Of a stretch of DNA of 64,000 nt, positions 50,360-64,000 are shown in pieces. Every line of letters starts with the position of its first letter. Positions within the stretch are counted from its first letter, which is position 1. The notes under the pieces were generated by a model that did no database searches, was not told the origin of the DNA, and worked only from the letters and a program-made list of their open reading frames with translations. The position numbers and the translations under genes are program-made. This DNA comes from Candidatus Freyarchaeum deiterrae. GTDB taxonomy: Archaea > Asgardarchaeota > Jordiarchaeia > Jordiarchaeales > Jordiarchaeaceae. The stretch is from positions 480,001 through 544,000 of the forward strand of contig CP147778.1 in the NCBI GenBank assembly GCA_037305845.1, written 5' to 3'.

Positions 50360-50587
50360 TCAGCCTAGGTATCCTAGGGCTCTGAGTCTTTGTTTCACTC
50401 TCTCCTCGTCTTCTTTGCTGAAAGGCTCTCCCTCTTCCTGGTCTTCTTCCGCTACAACTTCGCGGAGCACGTATGTGACGTAGCTTGAGACCGAGGTGAA
50501 GCCGGTGTCTTTGATTCTCTCCTGTACCTTTTTGAACAGCGGTGTGGGTATGGAAACCGTTGTGAACTTTTTATCCTTTTCAGACAT
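50360..50587 (-). CDS. CopG/ribbon-helix-helix protein
   Basis: TTVSIP..L, GFTSVSSYVTYVLRE, C-terminal RLRALGYL. Confidence 0.85.
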   Translation of the reverse strand: MSEKDKKFTTVSIPTPLFKKVQERIKDTGFTSVSSYVTYVLREVVAEEDQEEGEPFSKEDEERVKQRLRALGYLG

Positions 50588-55294: not shown

Positions 55295-56527
55295 ATGGAG
55301 AAAGGTTACAGTCTTATTCGCATAATGGTTTTAGCAGCCTTTTCTGCTGGTCTGGTTATCTACCTCTTGGGTTTAGTTGTAGGATTCCTTCAGGCTTTTA
55401 CCGTTTATATGTTCTACTCGTTTACTTCAAACAGTTACACTTTAATTCCTGTTTTCCAGTTTGAGGTTTATCCGACGTTCGTCTCAATAATCTCTCCTCT
55501 TCCTCTATCTTTTGAGAGACTGTCACCCTTAACTCTAATGTTTCTTGCTTTCGCTGTTTTGAGTGTTGTTTCCACCTACCTGAAGAAGTTTAGAATCGCC
55601 TTGTTATCATCGATCTTAACTTTTATACCTGCTGTTATGCAATTCACAGTTTTAACGACCCTAGTGGGAAGTGAGCCCACCGGACTTTCAGTTATGTTTC
55701 TACTAGCTTCCCCTATTTTCAATCCTATCACCTTGCTTATGGTGTTCTCCTCGAAAAACCTAGTCCTAATTATTCTACCAGCCTTCATCTTCGGAACTGG
55801 AATAATTGCCCTATTTGCCATATTTATGAAAGAGAAAGTAGTTCTGGTCGCAGCAACCCCTGTAAGAGGAGAGAACTTCAATGCTCTCAGATCAATCTTA
55901 ACCCAGCGAGCGATTGTATTTATTCCTTTTTTGGTATTAGGATATTTAGGTTTCCTACCGGGTTCAATGTTGCTTCTAACCGAGTTTCCACACTACCCTC
56001 TTTTAGCCTACTCCAGCTCCATAAGTAACTCCAATTTCTTCTTTGAATTCTTTATGGTTTACTCTGTTATGTATTATCTCACATATTTCCTGACGATTGG
56101 AATCTACAACCGTGCGATAAACCGCTTGGTTGAGGCTTGCATCCCCCTTCTGGCTAAAAAGCTGGATAAACAGAAACCAGTAATTTCTCTTTGGGAAGTT
56201 AAGGAAAAGCTTGGGCTTAAGTCCGCAAATAAAAGATTCTTTAAAACGGTGCTCAAGAGTGCCGCCCCAAAAGGTGACAAAGAGGGTTCGGTATACTTTG
56301 GATTGGCGGGAGACTATCTGTACCTTAAGGATCAATTATCTCTTATAGTGAGAGAGAGAATTAAGAACCAGGGAAAGGCGGATATTTATGAAATCGCCTC
56401 AGAAATCCAAGTAGACCCGAAGCTGCTTAGGACTATTTACTATAGGCTCAGAAGGGAAATGCTCTTTGAAGACTTAATGATCTCGAGAAATATTGTAACA
56501 CCTTTAAGGAGTGAAGAATACCCCTAA
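55295..56527 (+). CDS. multi-pass membrane protein with basic C-terminal (winged-helix-like) domain
   Basis: about 7 TM segments then soluble ~140 aa incl. ADIYEIASEIQVDPKLLRTIY. Confidence 0.65.
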   Translation: MEKGYSLIRIMVLAAFSAGLVIYLLGLVVGFLQAFTVYMFYSFTSNSYTLIPVFQFEVYPTFVSIISPLPLSFERLSPLTLMFLAFAVLSVVSTYLKKFRIALLSSILTFIPAVMQFTVLTTLVGSEPTGLSVMFLLASPIFNPITLLMVFSSKNLVLIILPAFIFGTGIIALFAIFMKEKVVLVAATPVRGENFNALRSILTQRAIVFIPFLVLGYLGFLPGSMLLLTEFPHYPLLAYSSSISNSNFFFEFFMVYSVMYYLTYFLTIGIYNRAINRLVEACIPLLAKKLDKQKPVISLWEVKEKLGLKSANKRFFKTVLKSAAPKGDKEGSVYFGLAGDYLYLKDQLSLIVRERIKNQGKADIYEIASEIQVDPKLLRTIYYRLRREMLFEDLMISRNIVTPLRSEEYP

Positions 56528-56912: not shown

Positions 56913-58634
56913 CTAGGATGCTTCGCCTTTTTCCTTTTGTTTCTTTATTTCCTCTTCCCGTAACTTTCTCTTGAATATCTTCTCGGTAGCGGTTAGTGGT
57001 AAGTCGTCCCTGAACTCAATGAACTTGGGTATAGCGTAGGGTGGAAGGTGTTGCTTACAGTAGTTTATGATTTCCTCTTCCAATTGTTTGCTGGGCTCGT
57101 ATCCATCTTTGAGCTTGATGAATGCTTTTATTCTTTCGCTGCCTGGGCGCTTAGGGTCAGGAATTCCTATTGCTGCTGCTCTGGAAACTGCTGGATGCTC
57201 GTATATAACGTCGTCGACTACGCGTCCGTACACTTTGTAGCCTGAAATGTTTATCATGTCTTTGATACGGTCGACTACGTAGAAGTAGCCGTCTTCGTCC
57301 ATCTTGCAGATGTCCCCGGTGTATATCCATCCTTCCTTTAAACCATTGCCGGGAGTGGGCCAGTATCCTTTCATAACTTGTGGTCCACGGATGATCATTT
57401 CTCCTGGTTCTCCAACTGGCAGATCTTGGGTTCCGGTTTCAAGGTCGACGATTCTCACATCTGTTTCGGGTACGGGTATACCTATGGATCCGATCTTAAG
57501 TGGCAGGTCAATACTAACGCCGACTCCCTTAAGTATAGTCACAAAATTTGAGTGAGTGACCGGACTTGTCTCGGATAACCCGTAACCCTCACTCACGAGT
57601 ATATCCGCCTTCTTTTCATAGGTTTTGGAGACCTCAGGAGGGAGAGCCGCTGAGCCGCTGAAGGGAATAGACCCCATTAGTTCTTTCAGGTCAACACCCT
57701 TAGCCTCTGCCAACCGCATGAATTGAGTGGGGACCGCTGGTGCAAATAGTGGTTTATATTTTTTCAAGAGTTCGTAAATCAGCGCATCATTCCTAGGGTC
57801 TGGAACTAAAAGCAAAGTCCCCGCCCAGTTTAGGGCTAAGTTCATGGAGCAAGTCAATCCATAGATGTGGGAAAACGGGATGGCTCCAAGTACAGAGAAT
57901 TCGCCACTGTAGACATCCAGTATTATGCCTGCGGTTGGACCGAAGGTCTGTAAAACGTTTGTCGACAAGTTGTGGTGGGTGAGCATTACCCCCTTGGGTA
58001 GGCCCGTCGTGCCGCCCGTAAAGATTAAAACTGCTACATCCTCCATTGGTTCGATTTCAACTTTGGGAGGATTTGGTTCGGCTGAACTTATCAAATTCCT
58101 TAGTTGCAGGGTGCCTTCTATCTCATTAATTTCTGGTTCTTCTTCGGCCGAATAGTCATTGACGGATGTACATATTACCTGCTCAAGCTTTGTTTCTCCC
58201 TTTATTGAGGCTATATCTTTTAACTTCTCGTCCAGCGTGATTATCGCTTTCGCCCCAGACATTTTAAGCAGGTAAGTAAGATCGGCAAGCGGTAGCAAGG
58301 GGTTGAACAATCCGACGGTTGCTCCCGCTTTTAGGCTGCCGTAAACGCTGATGATGAACTGGGGTGAGTTCCAACATTGCACGCCTATGACGTCGCCTTT
58401 ATTAACCCCCAACTCAGAGAGAGCCGATGCAAGTTTATCCACATGGGATTTGAGCTCGGTATAAGTGTATTCTCTCCCCAAGTATATAGCCGCCTTGCTA
58501 TTTGGAAATTTTCTTGCAGACCTATCTATTATCTCAAACAAAGGAATTTCTGGGTACTCAAAAGTACTCTCAAGTCCTAATTGAGTGTATATCTTCATCC
58601 AAGGTTTGTCGGCATATGTGATATTCTCAGTCAT
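56913..58634 (-). CDS. long-chain fatty acid--CoA ligase
   Basis: FTGGTTGLPKG, EGYGLSE, YTGD, DRIKD. Confidence 0.92.
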   Translation of the reverse strand: MTENITYADKPWMKIYTQLGLESTFEYPEIPLFEIIDRSARKFPNSKAAIYLGREYTYTELKSHVDKLASALSELGVNKGDVIGVQCWNSPQFIISVYGSLKAGATVGLFNPLLPLADLTYLLKMSGAKAIITLDEKLKDIASIKGETKLEQVICTSVNDYSAEEEPEINEIEGTLQLRNLISSAEPNPPKVEIEPMEDVAVLIFTGGTTGLPKGVMLTHHNLSTNVLQTFGPTAGIILDVYSGEFSVLGAIPFSHIYGLTCSMNLALNWAGTLLLVPDPRNDALIYELLKKYKPLFAPAVPTQFMRLAEAKGVDLKELMGSIPFSGSAALPPEVSKTYEKKADILVSEGYGLSETSPVTHSNFVTILKGVGVSIDLPLKIGSIGIPVPETDVRIVDLETGTQDLPVGEPGEMIIRGPQVMKGYWPTPGNGLKEGWIYTGDICKMDEDGYFYVVDRIKDMINISGYKVYGRVVDDVIYEHPAVSRAAAIGIPDPKRPGSERIKAFIKLKDGYEPSKQLEEEIINYCKQHLPPYAIPKFIEFRDDLPLTATEKIFKRKLREEEIKKQKEKGEAS

Positions 58635-58744
58635 CTTTTACTTGCCTCCAATTGTTCATTAAACTTTAAAACCTCCATTTTTGAAGTACAGCTATCTCCT
58701 CCCTTAGTTCTCCAACCCCTATCTCATCTCAACAATAACAAAAG

Positions 58745-58815
58745 GTATTTTTAACATCAATTCCTCATTTAACTTCAAACATTTTTTCTTCTTTACTCTT
58801 CGACTCTCCCTCACA
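58745..58815 (-). pseudogene. decayed 5' fragment of an SCP2-type gene
   Basis: minus strand GAAGAGTAAAGAAGAAAAAATGTTTGAAGTTAAATGAGGAATTGATGTTAAAAATACC aligns by eye to GAAGAGCATGACAGAACAAATGTTGAAGATGTCGGATGACGATTTGATGAAAAATTTGCC at 63530. Confidence 0.5.
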
Positions 58816-58840: not shown

Positions 58841-59102
58841 GCCTCCTCGATTTTGAGGGAAACTCTCCGACTCCTAATTTTCAAATTCCTAGGTCAGTGA
58901 ATGTTTTTTCGGCTTTGATAACATTCGACAGCGCTGTGATTTATGATTGGTTCTTTCCTTTAGCTACTAGTTTTCTTTTGCTCCTCTCTTTTTCTCTTCT
59001 CCGGGGTTCTCCAACTAATTGAGGAGATAAAGCCCACACATATTTTTTTAATACCGTATTTTTACGGCATAGATACCATATTTTTTTGGTATAATATATA
59101 AA
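58841..59102 (-). promoter_or_regulatory. conserved promoter/operator/leader element, copy A
   Basis: TTTATATA, two 20-bp palindromes (59051-59070, 59073-59092), block 1 58983-59050, block 2 58841-58891. Confidence 0.85.
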
Positions 59103-59380
59103 TTTTACTCCCACCATGGCATGGGTAACGGAGATTTGTTCAGATTCTCTTTTTCAGGAGAATTGTTTTTGATATTCTTTTTCAATTTCAAGCATTTTTG
59201 CAACTCGAACTACTCTCGCTGCTCGTGTTCCAAGGCTGACATTTTTAATATTTTATTTCGTCGAATGATGTAATAAAGCATCTTTCTCCATATCTATAAC
59301 AGGAACAATCTGCATCATTCAAAGGTGGGCAGGAGATAAAGAACAAATAATTAAAAAAAGCATAATAGTTCGTAGAAAAA

Positions 59381-60070
59381 TTACTTGTTAGTGAGCTTAA
59401 AATTTGTGATGTCCATATAGGTGTAACCATTTCTGGGAACTTTTTGGGTTTCAAGTATTTTGATTCTTTTCTTGAATATTGGGCCGTCGTAAACGAATGT
59501 GTGATACTCGCCCAGCTCGCCTAGGATGTCAACCTCATGGTCTTTCTTAACTTCGAGCAGTTCATTAAGAAAGTCTTGGTCCAGTTTGCGCCCCAGCCAC
59601 TCGTCTCCCAAGAATTCCTTTTTAACCATAATAACGATTGCTTTGAAGCCCAAGCTGATAAGCTCTCTGAAAACATTCTCGGGATCATCGCCGAAAAGAG
59701 GTGATAGTGCTTTTATTCCCAGCTCTTTGCATACCCGCTCATTCCATTCTCGGTGTTCTGTAATTTCTTCCACATCCCCGAAGATACATCCTTCTATTCC
59801 TTTGGGCTTCAGCGCGTTAACCTGTTCCTTGAATCCCTGCTCGTAAGTCTCCCAAGTAACCTCCTTCATGACTATTGGAATTTCTAAGGCTTCGGATTGA
59901 GTCTTCAAAAGTTTAACGTTGAGTGCGTGCGCCATGGACCTGCCGCTGCTTGACACAAAACTCATCAGATAGGGAACCTTAACACCCTGATGGAGAGCCC
60001 TGTAAAGAGAAAGCGTGCTATCCTTGCCGCCACTCCAAGAAATAACAAATTTGGACAAAATAATCACCAA
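59381..60070 (-). CDS. diphthine--ammonia ligase (Dph6/ATP_bind_4) family PP-loop ATPase
   Basis: SWSGGKDS, FGD, LGR, GELGEYHTFVYDGPIF. Confidence 0.85.
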   Translation of the reverse strand: MVIILSKFVISWSGGKDSTLSLYRALHQGVKVPYLMSFVSSSGRSMAHALNVKLLKTQSEALEIPIVMKEVTWETYEQGFKEQVNALKPKGIEGCIFGDVEEITEHREWNERVCKELGIKALSPLFGDDPENVFRELISLGFKAIVIMVKKEFLGDEWLGRKLDQDFLNELLEVKKDHEVDILGELGEYHTFVYDGPIFKKRIKILETQKVPRNGYTYMDITNFKLTNK

Positions 60071-60319
60071 CCAAAAACAATCAGAACACAGAGCACTTCT
60101 AACAGTTATAAAAACTTTGCCTTCAGATTGGTTAAATCATAATTAGCTTGTTAATCATGGAATTCTCGCTACAACGTATAGAATTTAATGGGAGAATCTG
60201 ATAAAATTGTAATAAGGAGCATAACATGAGTACACCTTATGGATGTTTAAACAGAAAGATTCAATATCATTTTTTGGGTGTAACCTGCATAATAACGAGT
60301 TTGAGGATTAATTATTCTG

Positions 60320-61936
60320 GTGGTGGTGTTTTCCTTGCCGGATGGGGTTCCAATTGTTTTAACCGCGGATAGAACGTTGATGAGCAATTATATTGGCGGT
60401 ATGTTTCTGGGCTTCAGCTCATGTGTTCCCGCAGGCTTTATATCTCCCTACTTATACTTCAAAATTTTCTGTCCTCCAGTTCAAACCAGCAGAGAAGGAG
60501 CCGCGGTGTTGGCACCCTATGGAACGAGAAAGATTGAAGCCGCACTACTCAACTGTGGATTTGACGAGAAAGATGTAATGGTTGTTAGCCCCGAACAGCT
60601 TTCGAGGGCCGTTGGCCCCGACACAAAAGTTCTGGGTATAACCGAAACTGACCCTCTGGGAATCGGGCCCGCAACCACAACCTTCAGAGGCTTGTTCGGC
60701 GGTTATCCCCAAATGGCTTGGATGTTTCTCCAGATTCTACTAAAAACCCGTTTAAACAAATTCAAACCAAAAATAATTGTGGGAGGCCCGGGAGCTTGGC
60801 AGCTCGAAGAAGAGTACAATAGAAGAGTATTAGGTATAGACAGCGTAGTGATTGGTGAGGGCGAAATTGTTGTGCCTCCTCTCTTCGAAAAAGCAGTAAA
60901 GGGAGAAAGCATCCCAGGAGTTGTGTATAGCGATCCGGTACCCGAGGAGGAGATACCTCTTATAAGGAGACCTAGTGTTTGTGGGCTGGTGGAGATTGCC
61001 AGGGGATGTGGAAGAGGATGCAAATTCTGCACACCTACTCTCAAAAGTTTCCGGTGTCAACCAGTTGACTATATTCTCAAGGAGGTAGAGGTGAACGTCA
61101 AGGCGGGAAACTTCTCCATACTTCTCCACGCGGAAGATGTGTTAAGATATAAAGCAAACGGTTTACGCATAAATAGCGAAGCGGTTTCAAGTCTCTTCAA
61201 GACTGTTAAGAAATATCCGGGGGTGGGATCAGTGGAAATAAGTCACTTCGCTCTAAGCTCTGCGGCCGCTGCTCCACACCTCGTTGAGAGCATCTCCGAC
61301 ATCCTTGAGCTTGATTCTAAAAACTGGTTGAGTGGGCAGACCGGTATAGAGACCGGTAGCCCGAGAATGATCAAAAACCACATGCTGGGAAAGTGCAAAC
61401 CGTTCAAACCGGAGGAATGGTCGGAGACCGTTGTTCAGGCTTTCGAGATGTTAAGTGAAAATTATTGGGTTCCAGTCTCTACTCTAATTTTGGGACTGCC
61501 TGAAGAAACGGAGGAAGATATTTTTGACACTTTACATCTCATTAGAGAGTTGAGGAGTTTTAAGAGCATGATTGTGCCCCTGTTCTTCGTAGCCATGGGA
61601 ACTCTGGAAAAGGAAAAATCTTTCACACTAAACGATATGAAAGCTGCACACACCGAACTCCTTCTTGAATGCTGGGAGCACAACCTCAACTGGTTGCCAG
61701 AGCTCGTTAATGAGTATCGGGGAATAAACAGTCTAGTCAGAAGAAAGGTTATATCTCTTATAACTGGGTTTGCTTCTATTTTTGCGAGGCAAATATTTCA
61801 GATATGCCGAGAAGATTATGAAAACGATATCCAAAGTTTTATCAATGACTACAATGCGGGCAAAGTCCGCAGAGGTTTTCTAAGATTAACCAAATTAGTT
61901 GACCACTTCCAAAAACTCCGTACAGAAAGCAAATAA
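60320..61936 (+). CDS. B12-binding radical SAM protein, GDGT ring synthase (Grs)/GMGT synthase-like
   Basis: IVLTADRTLMS, FLGF..C.P, APYGTRKIEAAL, GGPGAWQ, EIARGCGRGCKFC, GIETGS. Confidence 0.7.
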   Translation: MVVFSLPDGVPIVLTADRTLMSNYIGGMFLGFSSCVPAGFISPYLYFKIFCPPVQTSREGAAVLAPYGTRKIEAALLNCGFDEKDVMVVSPEQLSRAVGPDTKVLGITETDPLGIGPATTTFRGLFGGYPQMAWMFLQILLKTRLNKFKPKIIVGGPGAWQLEEEYNRRVLGIDSVVIGEGEIVVPPLFEKAVKGESIPGVVYSDPVPEEEIPLIRRPSVCGLVEIARGCGRGCKFCTPTLKSFRCQPVDYILKEVEVNVKAGNFSILLHAEDVLRYKANGLRINSEAVSSLFKTVKKYPGVGSVEISHFALSSAAAAPHLVESISDILELDSKNWLSGQTGIETGSPRMIKNHMLGKCKPFKPEEWSETVVQAFEMLSENYWVPVSTLILGLPEETEEDIFDTLHLIRELRSFKSMIVPLFFVAMGTLEKEKSFTLNDMKAAHTELLLECWEHNLNWLPELVNEYRGINSLVRRKVISLITGFASIFARQIFQICREDYENDIQSFINDYNAGKVRRGFLRLTKLVDHFQKLRTESK

Positions 61937-62225
61937 GTACCACAGTCTTAAAGCCTTACCTCGCCCTTAAATAACTTAAAATATTCGAGCCTAAAAGGGA
62001 AAAGCCAGTTTAGTTCCAAAAATTTTGATAATTAATGTAATGTCCAGAATCAATCTGCTCTAATCAGGAAAAGGAAAGAGGCTATTATCCAGTATAGGAA
62101 AAAATAACTATCTGCAACCTAATTGTGGGAGAGGTAGGTTCCACTGCATGTACATTTTTCTTTTCTAACCACTTCCAGAAATCTACACGATTGAAAAAGG
62201 GGATCTCTTCGCTATTTCTGAAAGA

Positions 62226-62470
62226 TTTATATAGGTGCAGTTTCAAAAAACATGGAATAATAAAACAATCAGTGGATTTTCCTCAATAGTTAGAGAACTC
62301 TCCGGAATAAGCTAAGGGTGTTGGAATGAAATCTGAAGAGAGGCTATTAACGATAAGGCGCAGTCCACTTTGTTTACGCCAAACGGAAAAGCATGTTGTT
62401 AATCCTGAGAGCGATTGGGACACGTTAGGAGTCTTGAGAGTTCGCCTTAATGAATAAGATTAAGGAGGTT
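62226..62470 (+). promoter_or_regulatory. conserved promoter/leader element, diverged copy C
   Basis: TTTATATA 62226; GTGG..TCCTCAATAGTTAGAGAACTCTCCGGA 62272-62306; TTAGGAGTCTTGAGAGTTC 62425-62443; AAGGAGGT SD. Confidence 0.7.
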
Positions 62471-62475
62471 TTGTA

Positions 62476-62994
62476 ATGAATAATGCTGGAGAAGAAATAA
62501 TAAATCTGACTAAAAATATAAGAGGCCAGTATGCGGGCCTTTTAGAATTGAGACCAGACCTACCGCGGGAGTTAATCAAGGCTCTAGAGGAGAGCGACGT
62601 TAAGAAGAGCAGTATCGAGTCCCCTCAAGTATCGGATGCATTTACGGAGCTTCTGTGGGGAGTGATAGGCGCATTGGTTGAAAGAAAACCAGAACTGAAA
62701 AAAATAGTGACGGACGCAGGGAATATCAAAATCACCTACGAAGCTACAGACAGCCCTATGAAGGGACATTATGAGTTAAGCGCCGGAAAGATCACAGGCG
62801 GAGCGGGGGCGACAAAGCCCTACGACCTCAGGGTAACAGGCCCCACAGATGTTCTAACAAAACTAACCACAGGAGCCATCGATTCAACACAAGCGTTTAT
62901 GACCGGCCAGTACAAGCTAGAGGGAAACTTGGCTATTGGGATGAAACTGACACCAGTAAGCAAGAAAATAGCCGAAGTTCTTAGAGGCAAATAG
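62476..62994 (+). CDS. SCP2 sterol/lipid-binding domain protein
   Basis: DLRVTG, L.KLTTGAIDSTQAFMTGQYKLEGNL...MKL. Confidence 0.85.
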   Translation: MNNAGEEIINLTKNIRGQYAGLLELRPDLPRELIKALEESDVKKSSIESPQVSDAFTELLWGVIGALVERKPELKKIVTDAGNIKITYEATDSPMKGHYELSAGKITGGAGATKPYDLRVTGPTDVLTKLTTGAIDSTQAFMTGQYKLEGNLAIGMKLTPVSKKIAEVLRGK

Positions 62995-63236
62995 AGTTTA
63001 AAATATTCTTGATAAATTTCTCTTTTTTTTGTCCATTTTTCCATTACATACTCCACACCGTTTGCAAGTCTTAAAACTCAATTAAAGCCTTGAGAAATGG
63101 AAAAAGGTTAGTGTCCCGAATAGAAAGCAAAAACCTCTCAAATCTAATTTTTGGGATAATTTCGAACTTATTTTTCATTTTAGGAATAAAATAAGGAACC
63201 CTGACATTTATAAGGTTCTTCATCATAAACACAAAA

Positions 63237-63505
63237 TTTATATACATATGCCGTAAAAATACGGTATTAAAAAAATATGTGTGGGCTTTATCTCCTCAAT
63301 TAGTTGGAGAACCCCGGAGAAGAAAGAGAGGCGCAACAGAAAATAACAGCAAAGAGAACACAACAAATTACAAAACGCAGCAGACATGAATGCTTCAGCA
63401 TAACCAACAAAGTAAGTATCCATCAAGCCAGGAATTAGAAAAGTAGGAGACGGAGAGTTTCCCTCAAAATAGAGGAGGTGCAGCCTTTTAGGATAGAGGA
63501 GGTAG
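63237..63505 (+). promoter_or_regulatory. conserved promoter/operator/leader element, copy B
   Basis: TTTATATA 63237; palindrome ATGCCGTAAAAATACGGTAT 63248-63267; block 1 to 63331; block 2 63430-63479. Confidence 0.85.
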
Positions 63506-63509
63506 TTTG

Positions 63510-64000
63510 ATGTCAAATGTAGAAGAATTGAAGAGCATGACAGAACAAATGTTGAAGATGTCGGATGACGATTTGATGAAAAATTTGCCGACTTTGGGCC
63601 CCAAGATAATAGGTCATGTTGCAGAGATAATGGAAGAGATGCCAGATGTAACTACGAGAATAGTTCAAAGGATGGATAAGGCCGATGTTAAGAAAATGGC
63701 TAGCCAAGCACCTGCAGCGGTTGATGCATTCACAAAGATTCTGTGGGAAGGAGTCGGCTTAGTGGCTGAAAAAAATGCAGAATTCAACAAGGCGTTAAAG
63801 AATGTGGGAAATATAAAACTCAACTATGAAGCCGACGACAGCCCTATGGCGGGACACGAGGAAATAAATAATGCTAAGGTCACGGGTGGACCTGGTAAGC
63901 TAAATAACGTCGACATTACCGTGCAAGGCCACACAGCCATTCTAATAAAGTTGGTCACAGGCGGATTGGACCCCATGAAAGGTTTGATGATGCGCCAGTT
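63510..64000 (+). CDS. SCP2 domain protein, paralogue of 62476..62994 (3' truncated by window; not in ORF track)
   Basis: GAGGAGGT SD; MSNVEELKSM...DAFTKILWEGV...GNIKLNYEADDSPMAGH...KLVTGGLDPMKG. Confidence 0.85.
   Translation, partial: MSNVEELKSMTEQMLKMSDDDLMKNLPTLGPKIIGHVAEIMEEMPDVTTRIVQRMDKADVKKMASQAPAAVDAFTKILWEGVGLVAEKNAEFNKALKNVGNIKLNYEADDSPMAGHEEINNAKVTGGPGKLNNVDITVQGHTAILIKLVTGGLDPMKGLMMRQ

Follow-up and report, generated by a model that had tools for sequence, protein, structure and literature searches.

The 64,000-nt window analyzed here (Candidatus Freyarchaeum deiterrae, contig CP147778.1, positions 480,001 to 544,000 of the forward strand) contains three homologous upstream regions, copies A, B, and C, each located ahead of a gene with a predicted role in lipid handling. 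The genome holding the window (G000) is a single contig of 3,576,204 bp with 40.7% GC, and close homologs of the window proteins carry the name Candidatus Freyarchaeota. The genes behind copies C and B encode SCP2-domain proteins (PF02036), the gene behind copy A encodes an AMP-binding ligase, and a third SCP2 gene comes after SCP2-1, just outside the window (Table 1). An earlier sequence-only reading had described the copies as a bipartite RNA leader of about 240 nt, in which two conserved blocks flank a divergent spacer, and had proposed a riboswitch- or attenuator-like switch. The positions and strands of the three copies, the identity of the downstream genes (two SCP2 genes and a ligase), and the absence of a reading frame common to all copies were reproduced. 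The spacer, given as 95-115 nt, measures about 120-125 nt. The homologous stretch of about 240 nt is likewise present, but its first ~35 nt correspond to promoter and operator DNA rather than RNA, so that the transcribed leader would span about 220-240 nt in B and C.

Homology, duplication and gene conversion

Copies A and B are 77% identical over 270 nt (blastn E 2e-48). A profile built from A, B, and C retrieved no fourth copy in the genome (next match E 0.16). Protein-anchored look-ups recovered about 20 homologous leaders, all from the same genus or from close metagenomic relatives. Four belong to genome G002, one ahead of each of three SCP2 genes and one ahead of the ligase; metagenome contigs supplied the remainder. 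SCP2-1-type leaders include A, B, L036_1, L038_1, L039, L040, L041, and two in G002; a second class is of the downstream-paralog type, and copy C is intermediate. A single-leader query of 300 Asgard genomes gave matches in G000 and G002 only, and no such leader precedes the SCP2 genes of the sister family or of genome G001. This confinement to the genus, together with the absence at sister-family SCP2 genes, indicates paralogs carried by tandem gene duplications and not independent insertions. By these sequence comparisons, the leader region is a real, genus-restricted control region of a lineage-specific family of SCP2 (lipid carrier) proteins.

As judged by alignment, copy A is an SCP2 leader that arose by duplication, and behind it lies a decayed piece of an SCP2 gene, the sole match besides the three SCP2 genes in a genome-wide nhmmer search. 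Its block 2 ends about 207 nt ahead of the ligase start. A Shine-Dalgarno (SD) sequence previously placed near 58693 proved to be a purine run (58693-58701) formed by Glu-Glu codons of this relic. Block 2 of copy A is 34/35 identical to that of L040, the ortholog of copy B, with flanks of 76/118 and 19/32. The upstream SD copy, SD1, was kept with the rest of block 2, whereas the true SD and the open reading frame (ORF) decayed (the 19/32 flank).

Gene conversion has also shaped the copies. A and B are identical over 76/76 aligned bases from the operator to block 1, whereas L040 matches over the same stretch at 66/73 (7 differences), which indicates a recent conversion event. In G002, the promoter with two operators serves SCP2-1 and the one with a single operator serves the ligase, the reverse of G000, and this swap is a further sign that the copies have recombined. 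Homogenization therefore accounts for part of the block pattern. The contrast between blocks and spacer does exist among A, B, and C, but it is partly a product of conversion and is much weaker among orthologs, for which the comparison gives 0.70 for block 1, 0.64 for the spacer, 0.63 for the P2 arm of block 2, and 0.61 for fourfold sites.

Table 1. Features of the three copies and of their downstream genes (window positions)
Feature	Position	Strand	Remark
Acyl-CoA ligase-like gene (AMP-binding, 573 aa)	56913..58634	-	Own SD-like run at 58645-58649
Decayed SCP2 5' fragment, frameshifted relic of SCP2-1 5' end	58691..58807	-	nhmmer E 0.007 genome-wide; colinear alignment
Block 2, copy A (P2 3' arm 58856-58866; SD-like copy 58842-58851)	58841..58876	-	Adjoins no intact start codon
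Block 1 P2 5' arm, copy A	59003..59013	-	
Block 1 anti-SD 11-mer (P1 5' arm), copy A	59018..59028	-	
20-bp palindromic operator, copy A	59051..59070	-	0.25 changes/column vs 1.49 at fourfold sites
Second, tandem operator palindrome, copy A	59073..59092	-	Within the window in A only
TATA box, copy A, A-rich BRE just upstream	59095..59102	-	Position constant in all homologous leaders
TATA box, copy C	62226..62233	+	Operator behind it degenerate
Block 1, copy C (anti-SD-like part and P2 5' arm)	62277..62301	+	
Block 2, copy C (P2 3' arm 62437-62447)	62426..62468	+	Local hairpin 62445-62465 overlaps single SD
SCP2-domain gene behind copy C, 172 aa	62476..62994	+	Clusters with SCP2-3 paralogs
TATA box, copy B	63237..63244	+	
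20-bp palindromic operator, copy B	63248..63267	+	Between TATA box and expected start site
Block 1 anti-SD 11-mer (P1 5' arm), copy B	63290..63300	+	0.45 changes/column, P 1e-4 vs fourfold sites
Block 1 P2 5' arm, copy B	63305..63315	+	
Block 2, copy B (P2 3' arm 63454-63464; upstream SD copy SD1 63469-63478)	63444..63478	+	
SD2, copy B (true SD)	63493..63502	+	Right spacing to SCP2-1 start codon
SCP2-1 gene behind copy B, 189 aa counted from ATG at 63510	63510..64000	+	Extends beyond window end

The promoter-adjacent operator

Each SCP2-1-type copy begins with a B recognition element (BRE) rich in A, plus a TATA box, followed by a 20-bp palindrome. Counted from the TATA box's first T, the dyad keeps a spacing of 10-12 nt in 10 promoters. 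It is doubled in tandem in copy A and in the G002 SCP2-1 promoter, and degenerate in copy C and the downstream paralogs. Constraint was measured on a tree of seven SCP2-1 orthologs, with 37 fourfold-degenerate SCP2 sites as reference (1.49 changes/column). On this scale, the operator is the most constrained part of the region (0.25 changes/column). A fourth promoter with TATA box and operator was found at genome position 3013606 (L003:5586-9698; G000 3013585 onward), and the reversed-pattern control returned 0 matches. The genes behind it encode SCP2, acetoacetate decarboxylase-like, FAD-linked oxidase, and CCG/4Fe-4S proteins, and its short leader lacks block 1 and block 2. Both hallmarks of a promoter-proximal archaeal operator, a fixed TATA spacing with constraint and an independent related promoter, are present.

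Archaeal transcription starts about 23 bp past the TATA box (PMC4247193). This places the palindrome after the TATA box and ahead of the expected start site, where a repressor, once bound, would block initiation. A BRE/TATA promoter with an adjoining palindromic operator for a putative dimeric repressor is well supported by the alignments, as is the small lipid regulon that the operator would define at four promoters. The shared lipid regulon proposed earlier is thus upheld, and its clearest signal is a DNA operator that had been counted as RNA.

At 8-15 kb past the window is a beta-oxidation cluster that includes a TetR gene. The TetR_N gene (L002:11300-12140; G000 551459-552136) has a 3-hydroxyacyl-CoA dehydrogenase, two enoyl-CoA hydratases, and an acyl-CoA dehydrogenase as neighbors. 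Its product was considered as operator binder and rejected. The region upstream of the gene lacks the 20-bp operator and carries several TGAC/GTCA-type dyads, suggesting an operator of its own. This gene is the only TetR_N match of the genome, and the same query found none in G002, which is 99% complete and has the operator, nor among 10 relatives. Given the differing dyads and the lack of co-occurrence in G002, the TetR protein is probably not the operator binder. A further operator-like palindrome at G000 3043566 (score 19.9 of 26.6) precedes a gene for a ~500-aa protein with a signal-like N-terminus; it has no adjacent TATA match and scores within the shuffled-matrix maxima.

Constraint and possible pairing in the leader

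Past the operator, constraint concentrates on short segments. The 11-mer anti-SD in block 1 has 0.45 changes/column (P 1e-4), against 2.5 for the next four bases, the loop between arms. SD1 is conserved like the true SD (0.33, P 2e-4, and 0.36, respectively) although it lacks a properly spaced start codon. The P2 arms are less constrained (5' arm 0.9, P 0.03; 3' arm 1.07), the spacer shows 1.2, and the TAGGAG segment of block 2 evolves near neutrally (1.25 vs 1.49). The 3' tail of the 16S rRNA matches the SDs of these leaders. The earlier claim that an anti-SD segment under constraint could base-pair with the SD region is thereby upheld, and a conserved segment complementary to the SD is what an anti-SD attenuator calls for.

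Blocks 1 and 2 can form a nested duplex with an outer helix P1 (anti-SD with SD), an internal loop, and an inner helix P2. Their complementarity exceeds that of shuffled sequences (z -3.7 in B, -2.7 in A, -2.8 in C), and the duplex is better than with shuffled block 1 in 9/10 leaders. Among 693 genomic upstream regions, 7/8 SCP2-1-type leaders scored rank in the top 0.3-2%. The outer helix of L039 reaches 10 bp, and one P2 column displays A-U, G-U, and G-C pairs (after correction of the G2_1 register). Three orthologs have a spacer shorter by 60-80 nt and retain both arms, which fits long-range pairing and speaks against an aptamer in the spacer.

The complementarity of the anti-SD to the SD region thus stands, but not the pseudoknot order assigned to it, since the best partner is the GAGGAGG copy past the P2 arm, in nested order. 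A pseudoknot with the TAGGAG segment was rejected on account of its near-neutral rate and this better partner. The local hairpin attributed to block 1 shows no compensation; its probability is 0.39 in B and does not exceed 0.04 in any other copy. The idea that blocks 1 and 2 are repeats of one binding site was rejected as weak.

Interpretation and relation to known systems

We tentatively favor, at slightly less than an even chance, a two-layered arrangement in which a repressed promoter is followed by an SD-sequestering leader that tunes translation through decoy SD1 or the true SD. In the first layer, a dimeric repressor on the operator would block transcription initiation. In the second, the 5'-proximal anti-SD arm of the ~230-nt leader would pair long-range with the SD region and thereby set or modulate translation. 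In SCP2-1 leaders, an anti-SD bound to decoy SD1 would leave the true SD free, and an anti-SD bound to the true SD would mask it. The balance would more likely be tipped by co-transcriptional folding or by a protein than by a bound metabolite.

Several results weigh against this arrangement. Covariation is absent, in a test of low power with 10 sequences; two-sided changes number 0 in 21 pairs on the MAFFT alignment and one after the G2_1 register fix. Cognate arms pair no better than swapped arms (p 0.26), and several substitutions disrupt P1 and P2 and remain unrepaired. Whole-leader minimum free energy z-scores are 0.6 (B), -0.3 (A), and -1.0 (C), with no common fold. With the two SD copies of B, P1 reaches ensemble probabilities of 0.02 and 0.15, and in A and C the value is 0; the probability spans 0-0.9 across homologs, with values of 0.6-0.9 in just three, including the G002 SCP2-1 leader (0.9) and L036_1 (0.8). 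In the duplex ranking, copy C falls at 10%, and the downstream paralogs resemble background. The constraint test relies on only seven orthologs, and some of its regions were drawn after the alignment had been viewed, the anti-SD having been named beforehand by the earlier reading; early gene conversion may also mimic constraint in copy A. Natural deletions add to these points. In L058, the ligase leader retains promoter, operator, and block 1 but no longer has block 2; in the present genome, the third SCP2 gene is missing most of the leader, ~170 nt relative to its orthologs, and has kept a promoter-like start and the SD region (L002:4080-4187). Furthermore, purine-rich leaders offer any pyrimidine tract several partners, so that complementarity alone is weak evidence. 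Predicted folds are nearly alike at 20 and 37 °C.

The L058 leader also leads to the strongest competing explanation, since block 1 can evidently persist without block 2. Block 1 may be constrained on its own, as a second DNA-binding site, an initially transcribed element (about +15 to +55), or an RNA site for a protein, the complementarity being what remains from an ancient inverted duplication of the SD unit. This alternative is a serious though unlikely one. It is consistent with the missing covariation between blocks, with the imperfect dyad symmetry of block 1 and the invariant purine motifs 3' of P2, and with the ease with which SD units duplicate (two tandem copies in SCP2-1 leaders). 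However, it leaves the conservation of the non-functional SD1, also in A, unexplained. A matrix scan of the genome with block 1 revealed no other convincing site, whereas the operator does have an independent one. In the same scan, block 2 scored weakly; the exact block 1 pattern gave 0 matches in metagenome contigs, and block 2 look-alikes occur in coding genes only (24 nt at genome 2561903 and 20 nt in G008).

The L058 ligase ortholog itself (L058:1168-3573) carries an SCP2 domain as an in-frame C-terminal fusion, giving a protein of 802 aa (PF00501, PF13193, PF02036). At the fusion junction, a decayed SD and the start of an SCP2 paralog remain.

A lower probability attaches to ordinary paralogous upstream DNA, in which function is limited to promoter, operator, and SD, with the blocks resulting from duplication and patchy gene conversion. 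The A/B identity of 76/76 against 66/73 for L040, the swapped ligase and SCP2-1 promoters of G000 and G002, the small excess of block 1 over fourfold sites (0.70 vs 0.61), and the deletion or absence of the leader at several SCP2 genes all agree with it. Conversion within a genome, however, cannot keep the anti-SD arm and SD1 near-invariant in seven lineages (P 1e-4 and 2e-4), and block 2 of copy A is nearer to L040 than to its paralog B.

A riboswitch, in which the leader binds a metabolite such as CoA, acyl-CoA, or another cofactor and alternates between SD-free and SD-masked folds, is improbable. So is its fullest form, a two-state Asgard switch of a new archaeal riboswitch class, with the anti-SD arm toggling between decoy and true SD on a lipid or acyl-CoA signal sensed by the RNA. 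The location upstream of lipid genes, the two alternative SD targets of the anti-SD, and a few conserved unpaired purine motifs past P2 are in keeping with such a switch. The promoter geometry would fit a place in the 5' untranslated region of these genes, although the ORF adjoining copy A is a relic. Nevertheless, searches of Rfam 15 came back empty under both the gathering and the E-value cutoff (the best E, 0.84, fell within a coding sequence), covariation and a common fold are missing, and in none of A, B, and C does the probability of the anti-SD helix exceed 0.15. Deletion of the middle third in three orthologs leaves no evident aptamer core, the single-sequence query of 300 Asgard genomes found nothing outside the genus, and the operator already accounts for co-regulation. 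The riboswitch and pseudoknot switch of the sequence-only reading is not sustained by these results, nor by the comparison of cognate and swapped arms.

An upstream ORF, beginning at a start codon ~12 nt past the expected start site, would remove the anti-SD through translation of a short peptide across block 1. Most leaders have an ATG or GTG where block 1 begins on its 5' side, the first base alternating between A and G; among them are A (GTG, 25 codons), B (GTG, 21 codons), and C (GTG, 5 codons). This still more doubtful explanation meets with several objections: such an ORF is absent in L039, L041, and L058, conservation is lacking in frame, length (4 to ~55 codons), and peptide, the start codon has no SD ahead of it, and the segment evolves near neutrally in SCP2-1 leaders. 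Least probable is a decayed miniature transposon with terminal inverted repeats, or a leader intron spliced at a bulge-helix-bulge (BHB) motif: the blocks do form a ~35-nt imperfect inverted repeat around a variable spacer and the genome is very rich in tRNA introns (PMC11291895), but the genome profile search turned up no copies scattered through unrelated contexts, the SD itself makes up the 3' arm, and no BHB motif is conserved at the arm junction.

The favored arrangement of repressed promoter and SD-sequestering leader can be compared with established systems. Anti-SD attenuators and the expression platforms of translational riboswitches have long 5' leaders in which a pyrimidine-rich, SD-complementary segment also has a second possible partner. 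All three features recur here, and the leader would plausibly, though with a likelihood just below one half, work like an anti-SD attenuator behind a promoter-proximal operator; the testable marks of a riboswitch are lacking. It differs from these systems in that the pairing spans 60-150 nt without covariation and that no aptamer or trigger was found.

The FadR(Sa) operator of Sulfolobus acidocaldarius is a 16-bp motif located mostly more than 130 bp from promoters (PMC6449355). As in that regulon, where genes of a fatty-acid cluster share a dyad operator, one such operator is shared here by lipid genes, with a beta-oxidation and TetR cluster nearby; in contrast, the present operator has 20 bp, abuts the TATA box, and occurs in G002, where the TetR_N query found no match. 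Masking of the SD through leader structure is documented for L7Ae and kink-turns (k-turns) in archaeal 5' untranslated regions (UTRs) (PMC5539422). SD masking in an archaeon is proposed here as well, and GA-rich strands flank P2, but k-turn-like matches, common by chance, sit at no conserved place in SCP2-1-type leaders. A recurrent candidate in downstream paralogs shows no covariation. This candidate and an alternative helix of the same class (84% and 79% of cells paired, respectively) do not rise above shuffles.

Archaeal leaders had been called usually short. In Thermococcus kodakarensis, about 20% of mRNAs have 5' UTRs of 50-300 nt, so long leaders are not rare in all archaea (PMC4247193). 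Long 5' UTRs of Thermococcus and Methanosarcina (50-300 nt, with SD) are suspected of a regulatory role (PMC4247193). Unlike these, the present leader is multicopy and genus-restricted and has a constrained pair of anti-SD and decoy SD.

Other features were recorded around the locus and in the genome. A 410-aa membrane protein (window 55295-56527), which lies beside the ligase in L058 too, has a C-terminal tandem winged-helix-like region with a TM-score of ~0.55 to the winged helices of SelB and UFL1 in a low-confidence model, giving no usable assignment. A 75-aa ORF (window 50360-50587) appears ribbon-helix-helix-like by eye and has no Pfam match at E 0.001. The 16S rRNA gene (G000 1804896-1806517) measures 1622 nt against a 1478-position model, with an insertion of ~31 nt in the terminal loop of helix 45 (L001:3070-3100) that is possibly an rRNA intron. 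tRNA introns are very abundant in a Freyarchaeia genome from wetland soil (PMC11291895). In the present genome, ARAGORN without intron mode detected 9 tRNAs only, which is consistent with a high tRNA intron content (PMC11291895).

The locus provides natural experiments: a dead-ORF copy in which block 2 persists, spacer deletions, and a copy without block 2. A literature search turned up no account of operators or cis-regulatory leaders from Freyarchaeia, for which the present analysis offers a concrete operator motif and a four-promoter lipid regulon. If the pairing of the anti-SD with decoy and true SD is not functional, the region would be an ordinary duplicated promoter region and a clear case of gene conversion producing false conserved blocks. 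If it is functional, it would represent rare RNA-level control in archaea, apparently new for Asgard archaea.

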